A DNA stretch of 40,322 bases. Origin: a candidate division WOR-3 bacterium (GTDB taxonomy: Bacteria > Hydrothermota > Tepidihabitantia > SM23-42 > JAOAFX01). Below the pieces are notes generated by a model. That model did not search any database, was not told the DNA's origin, and was given only the letters and a program-made list of their open reading frames with translations. Location: positions 1 to 40,322 of the forward strand of contig JBDRWI010000015.1 of the NCBI GenBank assembly GCA_039802265.1, read 5' to 3'. A program made the translations under genes and the position numbers. This document shows positions 13,435-19,398 of the stretch, one piece after another. Numbering within the stretch: position 1 is the stretch's first letter; each line of letters opens with the position of its first letter.

Positions 13435-13489
13435 CAATATTATACTTTATTAAAAGATATTGTGTCAAACTTGTCAGCGGGAGGTTACA

Positions 13490-14347
13490 ATGAACTGTAC
13501 AAAGGTGCTATTGCTAATCGTAACTGCGGGTGCATTAATAACTCGTTGTGCCCAAAATGAAAAGGCAGAGGTTGAGGAATTTCTTGATAGATGCTGGTTT
13601 ATCGGCGGTGAGGCCCGTACTTCTGATGACAGCACGACAACACCCCAGGGTTCAATTGGTGGTCCAGGTCTTGCACTGGACACCTTTCCCTTCTATGTGA
13701 AATGGGTCCGGCGTATTGAACGACCTGATACGACCAGGCATTATGAAATTGATGTTATAGGAGATAGCGCATTTGTTACAATGACAGCATACTTTAAGGG
13801 AACACCACCGGAGTATGGTATCTTTGTTGTCAGCGATTCTCCGGTTGGCTCGGGATTGGTAATGGTGCGTGAAATCACCGATAGTGTTGTGCGAAAGATA
13901 AAGTGCTACCGTAATGATACAGGCTGGCACCTGGTAAGTATGACGGTTGCTGATATTTACACTGTGGGCACAGAACATCCGGTCACAATTACAAGAATAG
14001 AAGTGCGAGTTGGAGGTATTCTTGTCTTCACGGTTAATGACCCCAACACTTATTTCACAAAAGAACAATTGCCAGCATTCAAACCAAATGATACAGTGGA
14101 GGTAACCGTCTATTGCCAGGCTGAAGGTGATTCAACCTGGGCATTTTTGCATCACGGTGCAGAGCATAGACCAGGTGTAGGATTAAAGAGACACTGGCGT
14201 CAGCCATTCTATCGTGATAATACCACAACATTCAAGCGAACGTGGATAATCGCGGACGACTCAGTCCTCGTAACACCTGCAGTAAGGTATAGTGCAATTG
14301 ATGTCCTCGGTCACATTTTTTACTCTGCGTCAAAAATGTTGACTTAA
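13490..14347 (+). CDS. Hypothetical lipoprotein, possibly truncated at the C-terminus
   Basis: ATG 13490 with GGGAGG RBS; MNCTKVLLLIVTAGALITRC lipobox-like signal; last codons lie in a palindrome. Confidence 0.65.
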   Translation: MNCTKVLLLIVTAGALITRCAQNEKAEVEEFLDRCWFIGGEARTSDDSTTTPQGSIGGPGLALDTFPFYVKWVRRIERPDTTRHYEIDVIGDSAFVTMTAYFKGTPPEYGIFVVSDSPVGSGLVMVREITDSVVRKIKCYRNDTGWHLVSMTVADIYTVGTEHPVTITRIEVRVGGILVFTVNDPNTYFTKEQLPAFKPNDTVEVTVYCQAEGDSTWAFLHHGAEHRPGVGLKRHWRQPFYRDNTTTFKRTWIIADDSVLVTPAVRYSAIDVLGHIFYSASKMLT

Positions 14348-14667: not shown

Positions 14668-14695
14668 TTGCATAATTTATCAAATTCATTATAAT
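14668..14695 (+). promoter_or_regulatory. Promoter TTGCAT-N16-TATAAT upstream of the four-gene radical SAM operon
   Basis: Hexamers at 14668-14673 and 14690-14695; RBS AGGAGG at 14707-14712. Confidence 0.6.
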
Positions 14696-14713
14696 GAAAA
14701 CATAGAAGGAGGT

Positions 14714-15106
14714 ATGATGAACTTGCCATTTGGCGAAATTAAGAATAATCTGTTAATAATGAAATTCTCAACCGCGGATTATTCTATTGCTTCGGTATTA
14801 GCAGCAATAAAACTCCATCTTGATGTGATTGAGGAGATGGGTGCGATATTTTTGGGTGCCCAGACCGAGGTTGTTGCTGGACCCACACCGGTCTTCCAGC
14901 CGGTTCCGGTTGTTGCCCAGTTTGAATATACCGGCAAGGGCGATGCCAAGGCGACGCTTGAGAAGGTTTATAAACTTGTCTGGCAGGGAATTGTCAATTC
15001 ATTCCCTGATGAAACCTGCTGGTCTCAGGCAAAACAGGCATACTCTGATTTCATATCGGCACAGGCAGACTTATTAAGGGCAAGGATTGAGGCAAGTAAA
15101 GAGTAA
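14714..15106 (+). CDS. Hypothetical 130-aa cytoplasmic protein
   Basis: Strong RBS AGGAGG (start 14714 or 14717); no recognisable motif. Confidence 0.75.
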   Translation: MMNLPFGEIKNNLLIMKFSTADYSIASVLAAIKLHLDVIEEMGAIFLGAQTEVVAGPTPVFQPVPVVAQFEYTGKGDAKATLEKVYKLVWQGIVNSFPDETCWSQAKQAYSDFISAQADLLRARIEASKE

Positions 15107-15152
15107 ATGCCTAAAAGTCCAAAATACCTAAATACCTAAATGCCTAAATGCC
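15104..15152. repeat. Degenerate 8-bp tandem repeat (TAAATGCC/TAAATACC)n
   Basis: taaatgcc taaaagtc caaaatacc taaatacc taaatgcc taaatgcc. Confidence 0.8.
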
Positions 15153-15179
15153 GGAAGACTCAATGAAACAGCAAGTAAA

Positions 15180-16688
15180 ATGATAATTCTTTTTTGTCTT
15201 TTTTCTCTTACTGCTGACCTGCGCTGGGTTGAGGTTGATGTCTCATTATGGCAGGATGGAAGGGCGGATTTTGTCTATAAAGTCCGCTGGAATGTCATTT
15301 CCGGCTCAATGAGTGCATTCTATCTTATGGGCCTTTCAGTTGAACCATTCTTTGACTATGAAAATTCTTACGCCCTTGATGAATATAATAATAAATATCC
15401 AATAGACATCAAAGACCTGGGCGGTGGTAAATATGATATTGTGCTCGGTAAGGGGAAGAGATACGGACCCGGTCAGATTACCTTTATAATCCATTTTGGT
15501 GGTGATTTAGGTAGGAGTAGAAATCTTGCTGTAACACAGAGTGAATTTGGTGAACTTGTAGTATTCCACTGGGCGCCACCCCAGTGGGATGAACCGCTGG
15601 AACATTATACTGTAAATGTGTATTATCCCATAGAAACAATGAGCAAACAGGTGAACCCGGATGACTATGGCTTTCGCACGGAAAAATTTATGAACGAAAG
15701 ATATCTTCTGGACTACTTTGGGCAGGAATTTAAGGGAAAGTACTATTTTGCAGTTCGGATTCACAAGAATGATATATCGACAATGGAGAAAATGGAGATC
15801 CAGCAGTATATTCCAGCTAATTATTTTAACGCCGAAAAGTTTGGCCGGATTGAAATCAAACCCGAGCGTAGACGAAAATTTTTTATCCCTTATGACTTGC
15901 TATACATGTTATTTTCCATAATTCCATACCTATTCTATTCCAATCGCAAGGCACAAAAAATAAAAGGACTGTACAGTGAGGTACAGAGCCTGAATTGGCT
16001 TAGAAATGACTGGGTCCCACCAAAGATTGAGGTTGCAACATTCAGGAAGTCCGGCAAGGTTGCAAAACTTGACCTGATTGAGGCTGCAATATTCCTTGAC
16101 TATCCGGTTAATAAGGTCTTTACAATAATTGCTGAAAAATTGCAGAAGGATGGAATTTTGAGTATCTTGAATTACAATCCAATCAAACTCTCGGTTTTGC
16201 AAAGACCATCGGGTTTGAAATACTACGAGGCAATGTTTCTTGATGCAATAAAGAGTGATGGCACAATGGATGAGGCAGGATTAAAATCGCTTGTGATGCA
16301 GGTTGTTGAGAATATCCAGACAAAGGCCTGGGATTGTGACCTAAAGGCAACCAAGGCATATTATACCGAAAAGATCGGCTCCCCTGATGTGGAAGAACCG
16401 ATTGATGAAACTTACAGTGATATGTCTTATTATTATTATCTGCGCAACCAGCAGTTTGGCCGCAGTGGTTATTATCAACAGCTGGAGGATGGATTTGTCA
16501 TATATGGTGAACCAATAAAAGATTATTCAACTTTTATCCGTTCTGACGCCTGCCACAGTGCCTGTTATGTCCATACCGCCTGTCATGATGCCTGCCATTC
16601 GGCCTGCCACAGTGCCTGCCATTCGGCCTGCCATAGCGCCTGCCACAGTGCCTGCCATTCGGCGTGTGTGAGTGGAGGGGCGCGGTGA
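15180..16688 (+). CDS. Single-pass membrane protein (DUF2207-like N-terminal domain) with a C-terminal (CHSA)n Cys/His repeat tail; candidate radical SAM substrate
   Basis: Short hydrophobic N-terminus, beta-rich domain, one TM helix (FFIPYDLLYMLFSIIPYLFYS), helical domain, then CHSACYVHTACHDA(CHSA)6CVSGGAR. Confidence 0.8.
   Translation: MIILFCLFSLTADLRWVEVDVSLWQDGRADFVYKVRWNVISGSMSAFYLMGLSVEPFFDYENSYALDEYNNKYPIDIKDLGGGKYDIVLGKGKRYGPGQITFIIHFGGDLGRSRNLAVTQSEFGELVVFHWAPPQWDEPLEHYTVNVYYPIETMSKQVNPDDYGFRTEKFMNERYLLDYFGQEFKGKYYFAVRIHKNDISTMEKMEIQQYIPANYFNAEKFGRIEIKPERRRKFFIPYDLLYMLFSIIPYLFYSNRKAQKIKGLYSEVQSLNWLRNDWVPPKIEVATFRKSGKVAKLDLIEAAIFLDYPVNKVFTIIAEKLQKDGILSILNYNPIKLSVLQRPSGLKYYEAMFLDAIKSDGTMDEAGLKSLVMQVVENIQTKAWDCDLKATKAYYTEKIGSPDVEEPIDETYSDMSYYYYLRNQQFGRSGYYQQLEDGFVIYGEPIKDYSTFIRSDACHSACYVHTACHDACHSACHSACHSACHSACHSACHSACVSGGAR
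16548..16668 (+). repeat. 12-bp coding tandem repeat encoding (A)CHS units
   Basis: gcc tgc cay (tcg/agt/agc) units with synonymous variation. Confidence 0.95.
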
Positions 16689-18085
16689 TAATCAAATACC
16701 TAAAATCTAAAATGCCTGAATGCCTGAATGAGAAAATTAAGCTCCAAAATCAAAATTTAAAATGTCAAACAAATTCCAAATTCCAAATATCAGACGGAAA
16801 AGAAGAGATAAATTTAGAATGGGTGGACGGGTTTGTAAGAGAAATCAAACCATATATATATGTAAGAGATATGGATAATCTTTTAATTTTAATACCCAAT
16901 CAAGTACATAGATTGAATCAATCAGGTGTTACAATTCTAAATTATCTTCTCAAGGGCAACTCAGTCACCAAACTTCTTGGATTGGTAGGAGATAATGAAA
17001 CGAAAAGAAAAGAGTTGCATTACTTTTTCTGCGATTTGCGGGCGATTGTTAGTGGATGTCTCAGGGAAGGTGAAAAGAGAGAGGCAATATCCTATTATGA
17101 ATTTAATGGTGATCTGAATAATTATCCAGTCCTTTCAGAAATTGCCGTTACCTATCGTTGCAATCTTGATTGTGAGTTCTGTTATGTTGGTCATAGGGAT
17201 TACCCTGAACTTGGTACTTCTGATTTGAAAAAGATTATCTTTAAGATATATAATGAAGCGAAAATCCCATCAGTCAGTTTTACCGGCGGCGAGCCTCTAA
17301 TGAGAAATGATATTGTAGCACTTGTTGAATATGCCCGCAAGATTGGCTTATGGACAAATTTAATAACCAACGGCACCTTGCTTGACAGCAAACTTGCAAA
17401 ATCCCTGAAACAGGCAGGCTTGAATAGTGCCCAGGTAAGTTTAGAAGGTCCTGATGCCAAAATACACGATAGAATCACTGGAATTCCCGGTTCTTTTGAT
17501 AATACAATTGCCGGGATAAAATACCTCCTGGAACAGGGTCTATCTGTCCACACAAACACTACTGTCTCAAGACATAACATAGATTATCTTCCAGAAATAT
17601 TAAAGTTGATAAAATCGCTGGGATTGAGAAGGTTATCAATGAATTTAATGATTCCCTGTGGAAGTGCCGAGAAGAGAAGGGATTTATGGGTCTCATATTC
17701 AGAAATCGGTCAACATATATTAAAAATCAAATACCTTGCGCAAAGGGAAAATATCCAATTCTTATGGTATTCCCCGGTGCCGATGTGCGAATTCAATCCC
17801 ATAGCCTATGGTTTTGGCAATAAATCCTGCGCTGCAATTACCGGGCTTCTGAGCATTGACCCGCTGGGTAATGTCCTGCCCTGTTCTTCCTGGAGAGAAC
17901 CGGTTGGCTCGTTATTAAGAAATAGTTTCAAAAAGATATGGCATTCTCCGATGCTGAGTTATTTTAAGAATGCTGATTATGCACCGGCAGAATGCCATCA
18001 ATGTACTGAATTTAAGATATGCAAAGGTGCCTGTCCATTATTCTGGAAGGTATTCTCTCCGGGGCGAGGCAGGGAGATTGATTGA
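16685..18085 (+). CDS. Radical SAM/SPASM-domain enzyme with an N-terminal PqqD/RRE-like domain (PqqE/peptide maturase-like)
   Basis: CNLDCEFC (17159-17182), SFTGGEPL, ITNG, VSLEG; SPASM C-x17-C...CxxCx5Cx3C; RRE-like HRLNQSGVTILNYLLKGNSVTKLL; GTG 16685 overlaps the upstream TGA, with GGAGG 6 nt upstream. Confidence 0.9.
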   Translation: MIIKYLKSKMPECLNEKIKLQNQNLKCQTNSKFQISDGKEEINLEWVDGFVREIKPYIYVRDMDNLLILIPNQVHRLNQSGVTILNYLLKGNSVTKLLGLVGDNETKRKELHYFFCDLRAIVSGCLREGEKREAISYYEFNGDLNNYPVLSEIAVTYRCNLDCEFCYVGHRDYPELGTSDLKKIIFKIYNEAKIPSVSFTGGEPLMRNDIVALVEYARKIGLWTNLITNGTLLDSKLAKSLKQAGLNSAQVSLEGPDAKIHDRITGIPGSFDNTIAGIKYLLEQGLSVHTNTTVSRHNIDYLPEILKLIKSLGLRRLSMNLMIPCGSAEKRRDLWVSYSEIGQHILKIKYLAQRENIQFLWYSPVPMCEFNPIAYGFGNKSCAAITGLLSIDPLGNVLPCSSWREPVGSLLRNSFKKIWHSPMLSYFKNADYAPAECHQCTEFKICKGACPLFWKVFSPGRGREID

Positions 18086-18086
18086 G

Positions 18087-18998
18087 ATGGACTCTTATTC
18101 CATTCTTGGTAAAATCTCCCCAAAATTGAGAAATTTTGTTACTGTCATTTTATTTTTTACCGGTTTTGCCCTGCAATTGAGTTCAAGGAATATCCTCCCT
18201 GGATTACCCTTTATTGCTTCCTGTGTTTTACTGAACTGGATTAAAGGTTTTTCGATAAAACCAATCCGCCCCCAAAAATTGGAATGGACAGAAGTAACAC
18301 CGGAAAAGATTGCCATGGTTGGCAGGCATTGTGAGGGTTTAAAGAGAATCCCTAAAAATCTGGGATGTGCCGCATTTATAATCATCACTTTTTTCGTAAT
18401 ATTCGGCATAGGCTTTATTTGGGAGTTATTATCAAATCTAAGTAAATATCAATTTTCGGTCTTTGTCTTAATTATTGATTCTATAATTATCTTTTCCGGC
18501 GTAATGTTGAGTGGCGGCCGTGACATCTGGATTCCCAATAATCTGGATGTTAAAATTCCGATTATTGAAAGAATATTAAATCACCCTCTACTTAAAAAAG
18601 ACCCCAGTCTGCAGATAATACCTTACCTTGAAATCGGCAAGACAAAGGATGGCACATTTCCCAATGATACAAGGATACTGATTAAATTTAAGGATGCACC
18701 AGAGGATTTTATCGGTGTGCAATTTCAGATTTCAATAAATGATGTTCAGGGCAAAAAATATCCTTATTGCTACTGTGTTATCATTGCCCGGAAAACCTTC
18801 GGGTTATTTGCGAAATTTGTTCCTGTAGAATTAGAAAGAATAACCATTGAAACTGAAAGAAGCAGTGATACAGATGTGATTATAATTCGCCAGACCACAA
18901 CAAAAAATACTGGTTATTACACAGACACCCAGGTCCAAGATTATATCCTGAAAAACAGCATCAATATTACAAAAAGTATTCTTTCTAATCCAGCATAA
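18087..18998 (+). CDS. Hypothetical integral membrane protein (about 4 TM helices plus soluble C-terminal domain)
   Basis: ATG 18087 is 1 nt after the rSAM stop, with GGGAG upstream; four hydrophobic segments (ORF track starts at 17970). Confidence 0.75.
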   Translation: MDSYSILGKISPKLRNFVTVILFFTGFALQLSSRNILPGLPFIASCVLLNWIKGFSIKPIRPQKLEWTEVTPEKIAMVGRHCEGLKRIPKNLGCAAFIIITFFVIFGIGFIWELLSNLSKYQFSVFVLIIDSIIIFSGVMLSGGRDIWIPNNLDVKIPIIERILNHPLLKKDPSLQIIPYLEIGKTKDGTFPNDTRILIKFKDAPEDFIGVQFQISINDVQGKKYPYCYCVIIARKTFGLFAKFVPVELERITIETERSSDTDVIIIRQTTTKNTGYYTDTQVQDYILKNSINITKSILSNPA

Positions 18999-19050: not shown

Positions 19051-19240
19051 TGAGATGGGGTTATTTGTTTTAAAACATAGCCGCAAGTATTAGTTTGCGG
19101 ATAAAAAGACTTATGGTAGCGCGAAAAAAGAAAAAATAATTTTAATGGGGTAAGGCTTAATAGCCTCTGATTAAATCAAGGGTATGCAGTTTGCACTACT
19201 TATGGTGCATAAAAAATGCTATGAAATTTAATAAGATTAT

Positions 19241-19374
19241 CCCCTCCCTTGACGGGAGAGGATTAAGAGCCTGCCCTGAATCCTGACCCGTCTTCAGGAC
19301 AGGTTTATTTCAGGGTGAGGGTGATAAAATTGGTTACCCCTCACCTTTGCCCTCTCCCACAGAGGGGGAGAGGG
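19241..19374. repeat. Paired CCCTCTCCC...GGGAGAGGG REP-like elements with a nested 47-bp palindromic insert
   Basis: Compared with the uninterrupted copy at 36733-36768; insert 19268-19314. Confidence 0.8.
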
Positions 19375-19398
19375 ATTTGATATATCTGAGGAGGTAAC

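Follow-up and report, generated by a model that had tools for sequence, protein, structure and literature searches.

What does a radical S-adenosylmethionine (SAM) enzyme do when its gene overlaps that of a large membrane protein ending in a run of Cys and His residues? The question is raised by positions 14668..18998 of a 40,322-nt contig of a candidate division WOR-3 bacterium (JBDRWI010000015.1; "the window" is this whole stretch), a label also carried by the nearest named homolog (86% identity). The locus encodes a 130-aa protein, a 502-aa membrane protein that we call the carrier, an enzyme with a radical SAM and a SPASM domain, and a 303-aa membrane partner (4TM, for four transmembrane helices). 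Our computational analysis of this region shows that the cassette is real and widespread. The enzyme very probably acts on the carrier tail, and it is somewhat probable, taken as a whole, that the cassette matures this protein tail by making Cys-Ala thioethers.

The tail and its companion enzyme

The carrier tail contains 10 Cys and 9 His residues, arranged as nine H-x-A-C units followed by VSGGAR. A six-frame reading of the 2.3-Mb genome finds the repeat a single time, within the 502-aa open reading frame (ORF), and no separate short precursor carries it, so that the absence of a small free-standing precursor, initially reported for the operon, extends to the genome. We compared the codons of 42 tail residues in 19 related loci, which are kin and not independent. 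All residues were identical, 3614 of 7182 codon pairs differed synonymously and none non-synonymously, and the Ser codons switched between AGY and TCN. The lack of any amino acid difference against 3614 synonymous ones shows that the tail is kept as a protein; identical residues with diverged synonymous codons also rule out a DNA slippage repeat.

A pattern describing the tail was run against 185,579 species genomes and gave at least 117 matches, 80 of them with flanks and 79 with a host ORF. The matches listed belong to Chloroflexota, Spirochaetota, Planctomycetota, Myxococcota, Bacillota, Acidobacteriota, Omnitrophota, Gammaproteobacteria, Thorarchaeota and others. The host ORF was a member of the carrier family in 79/79 loci; the enzyme was present at 73 of them and the 4TM gene at 49. 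One of the six loci without the enzyme has just 197 nt of flank, and for the other five the enzyme is encoded elsewhere in four genomes and was not found in the fifth. In the reverse direction, we anchored the search on the enzyme: its SPASM region detected 527 metagenome loci, of which we used the best 80. Sixteen of these 80 lacked enough upstream sequence, and the tail stood beside the enzyme in all 64 that had it. Co-occurrence of the tail with both neighboring genes, which the initial annotation had put forward as a check, thus holds in both directions for the enzyme, but the 4TM gene is not universal.

Within the phylum, the tail is found in 14 of 151 genomes. The core enzyme is present in 13 of those 14, the gene being cut by a contig end in the fourteenth, and in none of the other 137. 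Among 40 relatives, the carrier was detected in 34, the enzyme N terminus in 34 and 4TM in 38, and none of the three genes was found in two (G023, G032). Operons that looked split (G025/G027) or incomplete (G003, G022, G030, G033, G035) were traced to scaffold N-gaps or contig ends, and enzyme-4TM fusions in L031 and L098 were artefacts of ORF extension, the real order being carrier, 4TM, enzyme. Viral contigs yielded no relative of the enzyme. They gave 103 matches to the tail pattern; the two that were opened (L232 and L239) are off-frame Pro/Val/Thr repeats. Tail-less hits obtained with a tail-free query looked, by eye, as if truncated or frameshifted. Neither carrier homologs devoid of the radical SAM gene, nor tail loss beside a retained enzyme, nor a separate precursor, the genomic patterns named at the outset as incompatible with the proposal, came to light.

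Variation among the tails defines the repeat unit, initially written as CHSA. Insertions (C-V-H, C-Y-V-H) occur in 97/858 links and sit solely between a Cys and the next His. As they never break H-x-A-C, the conserved unit is H-x-A-C and not C-H-S-A. Its third residue is Ala in 969 cases and Asn in 9, two units per tail being fixed by the search pattern, and its second residue varies (S, D, N, G, T, A, Q, H, E). Aromatic residues take the place of His in some units (Y-x-A-C, 23; F-x-G-C, 17; W-x-A-C, 6).

The tail stops 4 to 8 residues past the last unit in 78/79 loci, after a variable linker. Such an end would suit a membrane-tethered precursor of a peptide made on ribosomes and modified after translation (RiPP), as the initial annotation had suggested, whose modified tail would be cleaved away to work as a separate peptide; HxsA is indeed processed after radical SAM maturation (PMC13128918). 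However, no protease or exporter recurs near the 79 loci among the top neighbor clusters viewed, and the ectodomain and cytoplasmic domain of the carrier are conserved and well folded, which would be needless in a disposable leader. The tail is also near-constant across phyla, unlike what would be expected of diversifying toxin cores. Nothing supports the release of a free RiPP, and we regard this scenario as very unlikely.

Anatomy of the enzyme and the carrier

The enzyme matches Radical_SAM PF04055 with 97.3 bits (cut-off 29.5) and SPASM models PF13186 (37.5 bits, cut-off 21.5) and TIGR04085 (41.2, cut-off 27). The CxxxCxxC motif, GGEP motifs and SPASM domain are intact in 61/61 aligned family members. 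C159, C163 and C166 of the CxxxCxxC motif are invariant in all of them, as are seven C-terminal Cys (368, 382, 400, 437, 440, 446 and 450), six of which map to usual SPASM positions as judged by alignment only. Seven Cys for two auxiliary clusters would leave one iron for another ligand. The RiPP recognition element (RRE) claimed for this enzyme (approximately aa 40-135) is supported at the level of the family, with PF05402 matches in 32/61 members at E<=0.1 (best 1.7e-10), but this protein by itself has no Pfam PqqD match. TfuB1, PqqD and TbiB1 were the top natural Protein Data Bank (PDB) matches of a profile of the region, with weak E values of 0.005-0.05. The first ~35 residues are of low complexity and vary between relatives, which makes the true start uncertain. 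All named families scored far below their cut-offs among the top 25 shown of 88 NCBIfam matches. A co-fold of enzyme aa 38-466, with three 4Fe-4S clusters and SAM, and tail aa 428-502 scored 0.01 against a mark of 0.32; this result weighs neither way.

This anatomy bears on the possibility that the tail stays covalently unchanged, as a Cys/His (or Cys-only) array for metal or Fe-S centers, to be loaded, reduced or read by the enzyme. A stretch of 40 residues contains ten Cys and nine His, the tail is modelled as one helix, at low confidence, and partner genes of other subfamilies encode proteins with zinc-ribbon-like ends, all below cut-off. However, the combination of CxxxCxxC, GGEP, RRE and SPASM is that of a peptide maturase, and neither the strict Ala before Cys nor the replacement of His by Trp, Tyr or Phe would be expected of plain metal ligands. 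We find an unmodified metal array quite unlikely.

The carrier has no Pfam or NCBIfam family match, and PDB profile searches with the carrier, its cytoplasmic half, 4TM and the 130-aa protein returned nothing below E 0.3. Its structural model, built from 94 sequences (pLDDT, the predicted score in the local distance difference test, 84.5), comprises a beta ectodomain (~aa 9-217), a transmembrane (TM) helix (~234-255, starting at 238 in the model) and a cytoplasmic alpha/beta domain (~aa 296-400), followed by a variable, low-confidence linker. The ectodomain has the fold of the N-terminal domains of ribophorin I and M1 aminopeptidases (Z, 14.8; root mean square deviation [rmsd], 3.0; 181 aligned residues), and the inner domain (296-437) weakly resembles the GOLPH3/GPP34 fold (3kn1; Z, 5.7; rmsd, 4.8; 131 aligned). 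DUF2207 (PF09972) matches were found in 8/18 scanned proteins of the carrier family, three of them above cut-off, and none in this carrier; 17% of the top cluster of its Atlas neighbors carry DUF2207, and precomputed annotation assigns PF27846 to 14 homologs. Two homologs (P0055/P0058) have a duplicated ectodomain; ribophorin I has two domains of this type. In another (P0188), homologs of the ectodomain and of 4TM are joined in one protein.

An N-terminal hydrophobic segment is present in 76/94 carrier members and the main TM segment in 90/94. A second, weaker hydrophobic segment, seen in about half of them, corresponds in the model to short helices of the inner domain. By a rough count, Lys and Arg are commoner after than before the TM segment in 58/90 members, with the reverse in 19. 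Together, the hydrophobic segments and the charge counts make an N-out, C-in orientation the likely topology of the family. In this carrier the signal segment is short, it and the TM helix are only moderately hydrophobic (Kyte-Doolittle, 1.6), and basic residues flank the helix on both sides; its topology is therefore a prediction. The initial proposal that the tail faces the cytoplasm is therefore favored by the family, but the charges of this particular protein are indecisive.

The 303-aa partner was modelled with a pLDDT of 92.7 as N-terminal helical hairpins and a C-terminal alpha/beta domain that belongs to no named family. Its designation as a four-TM protein agrees with the four N-terminal helices of the model, but just two of them pass the hydropathy threshold. 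A fold search gave no clear match, only a weak resemblance to folds of type III chaperones (Z, 6.9-7.2), and a comparison of carrier and 4TM profiles found no homology. In His-tail loci of Chloroflexota/Myxococcota type (14 loci, including L021, L026-L028, L033, L036, L044 and L345), a ~400-aa helical protein takes the place of 4TM, together with a ~165-aa protein that has two helices and ends in a zinc-ribbon-like segment. Genomes of Myxococcota/Bradymonadales type (loci L030, L040, L043, L067) have two carrier-4TM pairs for one enzyme gene, and 12 spirochaete loci (L025, L047, L058 and nine more) encode a conserved ~206-aa membrane protein upstream of the carrier.

A sister system and the likely chemistry

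Six more genomes of the phylum contain a weaker match to the enzyme and no His tail. In all six, this sister enzyme is encoded directly behind a carrier homolog that ends in a Gly/Ser linker and CACACACAGCACACAGGGR, i.e., in a (Cys-Ala)n-GGGR tail without His. The two carrier families align over the ectodomain, the TM region and the inner domain (HHalign, 99.9%; E, 4.5e-36; 371 columns). The sister family is the larger one, with 2317 matches among 8000 scored candidates, and all 120 listed end in a Cys-Ala tail. Either enzyme is held by 17/201 Chloroflexota and 48/121 Asgard genomes (about 40% of the Asgard genomes searched). When 43 sister-enzyme loci from the phylum and from the Chloroflexota and Asgard samples were opened, a Cys-Ala tail adjoined the enzyme in 35 and no tail was in view in 8; a His tail was found beside the sister enzyme in 0/43, i.e., there was no cross-pairing. 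For the type lacking an adjoining tail, a Cys-Ala pattern was present elsewhere in three of the five genomes tested. We tested the one-to-one match of tail type and enzyme clade in this way and used it to choose between chemistries. In a quick, unfinished tree (61 rows, including six long-branch outgroups), both enzyme groups lie on one branch (SH-aLRT, 96) and the sister group forms one clade (100).

Several loci depart from these two types. Two proteins from Promethearchaeota (P0094, P0095) have a hybrid tail of H-x-A/N-C units followed by a Cys-Ala run ending in GGGW, which links the two subfamilies. Odinarchaeota-type carriers (P0224-P0228, L401) are 920-975 aa long, with a Cys-rich segment inserted in the cytoplasmic domain, a W-S-A-C unit and an H-D-D-C unit, and end in H-S-A-G-G-W-G; the score of their enzyme (459 bits) falls between those of the two clades. 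A 286-aa protein of other architecture (P0230) has internal H-S-A/N-C repeats and is possibly a target of the CXXX type. At 8/16 Chloroflexota sister loci (L356-L369), the sister enzyme is followed by another radical SAM-like gene, which is divergent; the two such genes inspected lack the SPASM cysteines. A ~142-aa gene resembling that of the ~165-aa zinc-ribbon-ended protein precedes the sister carrier in 6/6 loci.

Both enzyme clades share all ten Cys and a WY-x-P loop and differ at few positions, e.g., E152/D, S252/T and S401/Q. The residue preceding Cys is Ala, Gly or Ser in 750/806 cases in His tails and in 852/852 in sister tails, and no His or other aromatic residue occurs among the sister Cys-Ala repeats. 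Since near-identical enzymes face tails that have in common a small residue and Cys, and not His, a Cys-Ala thioether is the simplest common reaction. If the enzyme does act on the tail, such thioether chemistry is probable by analogy.

The sister system also bears on a modification through His, which would be either a cyclophane of the triceptide type, joining the His ring to the beta carbon of Ala, or an NxxC-type thioether between Cys and the beta carbon of the His at the third position upstream. The aromatic-x-x motif of triceptides is present as H-x-A in every tail unit, the H-x-A-C spacing is never broken while its middle residue varies, as in the triceptide motifs HAA and HTK (PMC11499958), and Tyr, Phe and Trp substitute for His. 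Nevertheless, the sister enzymes have the same cluster ligands and most of the same active-site residues, and their partner tails have neither His nor aromatics. The F-x-G-C units offer no beta carbon at the third place, and a cyclophane would leave the invariant Cys unexplained. No triceptide cyclophane synthase family appeared among the top 25 of the enzyme's 88 NCBIfam matches. Chemistry on His is thus unlikely in our view. Heme c attachment at CX3CH was rejected, given that the tail is predicted to lie inside and that the sister tail has no His; AhbD and NirJ were the top family matches of the enzyme, far below cut-off.

Other radical reactions on a repeat of a small residue and Cys, e.g., C-alpha epimerization or oxidation of the Cys side chain, have precedents in epimerases and sulfatase maturases. 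The unusual Cys layout of the enzyme and active-site residues that differ from those of CteB would be compatible with them, and the alternating Cys-Ala sister tail would suit an alternating pattern. They have no positive evidence in their favor, however, the best family scores being generic SPASM ones far below cut-off, and we hold them to be highly improbable.

The closest tested precedent for thioethers on a protein is CrpC of Methanococcus voltae (TIGR04463), which makes Cys-to-(i+3) thioethers on a soluble 28.8-kDa repeat protein, CrpA (PMC13692751, 2026). The two systems resemble each other in that an enzyme with an RRE, a radical SAM domain and a seven-Cys SPASM domain is encoded beside a protein whose N-terminal part is folded and whose C terminus holds a Cys repeat; the product of CrpC is a protein, as that of the present enzyme would be. 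A protein-sized substrate of an RRE-SPASM enzyme is therefore less new than initially assumed. In contrast, CrpA has a 17-residue repeat with C-x-x-Q/D, whereas the substrate proposed here is a four-residue H-x-A-C repeat on a single-pass membrane protein of 500-930 aa. The enzyme scores 64.3 bits with TIGR04463 (cut-off 525) and has another Cys layout, and is thus not a member of the CrpC family.

Other known systems differ further. Ranthipeptide and sactipeptide systems use a short free precursor, whereas 79/79 host ORFs here belong to a membrane protein family. NxxcB, GggB, QmpB and the enteropeptin enzyme build unnested thioether rings over two to four residues, sizes that the tail allows, but on short free peptides, under quorum control, in streptococci (PMC9389541, PMC13361665). 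The CXXX-repeat targets of TIGR04117 (Syntroph_Cxxx) and their maturase, TIGR04115, both defined in silico, likewise have a C-terminal Cys at every fourth residue beside a radical SAM enzyme. These models include no membrane carrier, and they scored low here: 13.9 bits for the tail and 28.1 for the best of 8 homologs with the 98-position TIGR04117 model (cut-off 50), and 32.7 bits for the enzyme with TIGR04115 (cut-off 350). In the HXS antiphage system (HxsA-D), a radical SAM enzyme also matures a His-containing repeat on an envelope protein. There, however, the H-x-S repeats lie near the N terminus, two enzymes act, the mass shift is +8 Da and the effector is periplasmic (PMC13128918), whereas the third residue here is Ala and the enzyme scores 81.8 bits with HxsC (cut-off 267.9). 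PADLOC gave no defense system match for the membrane proteins and only generic viperin scores for the enzyme.

Several observations weigh against Cys-Ala thioethers or limit the case for them. We infer modification of the carrier tail from anatomy, selection, linkage and homology; the loci that establish linkage are related and not independent, the enzyme tree is preliminary, and the basic residues on both sides of this carrier's TM helix leave the charge rule undecided. In the His subfamily, His is as invariant as Ala and Cys, which Cys-Ala rings alone leave unexplained. Some Asgard tails end in H-S-A without a following Cys, and the insertions break the C-x-x-A spacing in the 97 links that contain them. 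CrpC is described as having three Cys ligands for AuxI and four, including a late one, for AuxII (PMC13692751). Here the late fourth AuxII Cys is absent, none being conserved after C450, and an extra invariant one, C368, is found upstream instead; Glu461 is nearly invariant in the His-tail clade. With this odd Cys layout, the open site may differ from its position in thioether enzymes. Finally, the AuxI Cys (C400) is followed by Ser-Ser here and by Gln-Ser in the sister enzyme, as opposed to His-Gln in CteB (PMC10288494).

We propose the following sequence of events for Cys-Ala thioether formation. The carrier would insert in the membrane so that the beta domain faces outward and the C-terminal half lies in the cytoplasm, and the translationally coupled enzyme would bind the cytoplasmic part. 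The RRE may grip a Y/F-x-x-F-like segment that precedes the repeat or, as with CrpA, the folded domain. The enzyme would then abstract a hydrogen from the small residue of each unit and join that residue to a Cys sulfur at an auxiliary Fe-S cluster. The sulfur donor could be the Cys three residues upstream (C-x-x-A, the direction of CrpC) or the directly following one (A-C, an enteropeptin-like ring). By analogy, the product would be a row of small unnested Cys-Ala thioether rings, and the tail would stay on the protein as a rigid array, with the His side chains free in the His subfamily. In the weakest step of this scheme, the tail and the four-helix partner would form the inner end of an envelope-spanning complex for sensing or metal handling. 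Such a function is doubtful and is suggested by the layout of the carrier and by a distant relative. DUF2207 proteins (PF09972/PF20990), e.g., SMU.243 of Streptococcus mutans, appear to have a related ectodomain and overall layout, and the SMU.243 mutant has stress-tolerance defects (PMC10457818). Our searches found no literature linking DUF2207 with radical SAM enzymes.

Layout of the locus and wider meaning

The features of the locus are collected in Table 1. On re-reading of the sequence, the ORFs, the GTGA overlap, the GGAGG 6 nt upstream, the 1-nt gap and the tail ending all matched their initial description.

Table 1. Positions in the window of the cassette genes and associated elements
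Feature	Position	Strand	Remarks
Candidate sigma-70 promoter	14668..14695	+	-35 3/6, 16-nt spacer, perfect TATAAT at 14690-14695
130-aa soluble protein ORF	14714..15106	+	Accessory gene, without known family
502-aa type I membrane protein (carrier)	15180..16688	+	Structural model, fold match, DUF2207 matches in some family members
C-terminal tail	16548..16685	+	Nine H-x-A-C, then VSGGAR; proposed substrate
GGAGG ribosome-binding site	16674..16678	+	Within the tail's Gly-Gly codons, 6 nt upstream of the enzyme GTG
RRE-radical SAM-SPASM enzyme	16685..18085	+	Starts with GTG; GTGA overlap with the carrier stop
303-aa membrane partner (4TM)	18087..18998	+	Starts 1 nt past the enzyme stop

The description of the operon as promoter-led is plausible only: the TATAAT is perfect, but the -35 element is weak and a consensus scan did not list this promoter. 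Translational coupling of carrier and enzyme fits the codon usage of the tail, since the Gly-Gly near its end is written GGA-GG in 68 of the 105 loci having Gly-Gly, against a rough background of 543/3358 Gly-Gly first codons in long frames of this genome. The 130-aa protein had no match in Pfam, NCBIfam, PDB or Atlas. Its gene is found at 7/79 tail loci, is rare beyond this lineage, is confined within the phylum to the same 14/151 genomes as the tail, and is present at 15/17 top Asgard enzyme loci. It is an accessory gene, belonging to this lineage and to loci of Thorarchaeota type. In four Thorarchaeota loci (L023, L024, L052, L418), the enzyme is divergently transcribed from the 130-aa gene and the carrier.

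Positions 15107-15179, 16689-16790 and 19240-19375 of the window contain A-rich low-complexity repeats, which lie in intergenic DNA and the 5' end of the enzyme gene and vary among relatives, and stem-loops, which precede succinyl-CoA synthetase-like genes and whose core 9-mer occurs 84 times in the genome. Upstream, a 295-aa lipoprotein-like ORF (13460-14347, + strand) has no family match; runs of related DNA leave most of this ORF uncovered and show a one-base insertion at 14344, near its end.

We found no description or family name for the cassette or its Cys-Ala sister in the literature, subscription journals being mostly outside the search. A term search in three files of the CrpC supplement gave no CHSAC, DUF2207, Thorarchae or WOR-3, and other parts of that supplement could list these loci; it gave 9 CACAC matches, of which the two inspected were nucleotide sequences. 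As far as searched, the cassette thus appears to be an undescribed case in which a protein, and one integral to the membrane, undergoes RiPP-type maturation.

If so, RiPP-type radical chemistry would go beyond secreted peptides and soluble proteins and take in an integral membrane protein at its cytoplasmic tail, in a family found across many uncultured phyla and Asgard archaea. The short, repetitive and invariant substrate and the two sister enzyme-tail pairs make the chemistry experimentally tractable. The cassette is also present in a culturable host, Desulfobulbus alkaliphilus (locus L082). The cassette would also give a handle on DUF2207-like proteins and possibly a tool for installing repeated small rings. 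More tentatively, the two families may represent an ancient superfamily of envelope receptors, present in many anaerobic bacterial phyla and in Asgard archaea, whose cytoplasmic end is a poly-thioether ladder built by the enzyme in two co-evolving versions. If this speculative view were true, the His-studded version could hold metal ions or Fe-S centers in a row, the other being His-free Cys-Ala. The rings, repeated eight to ten times, would possibly be lanthionine-like or thiomorpholine rings made by radical chemistry, and RiPP chemistry would serve to equip an integral membrane protein with a lasting functional element.

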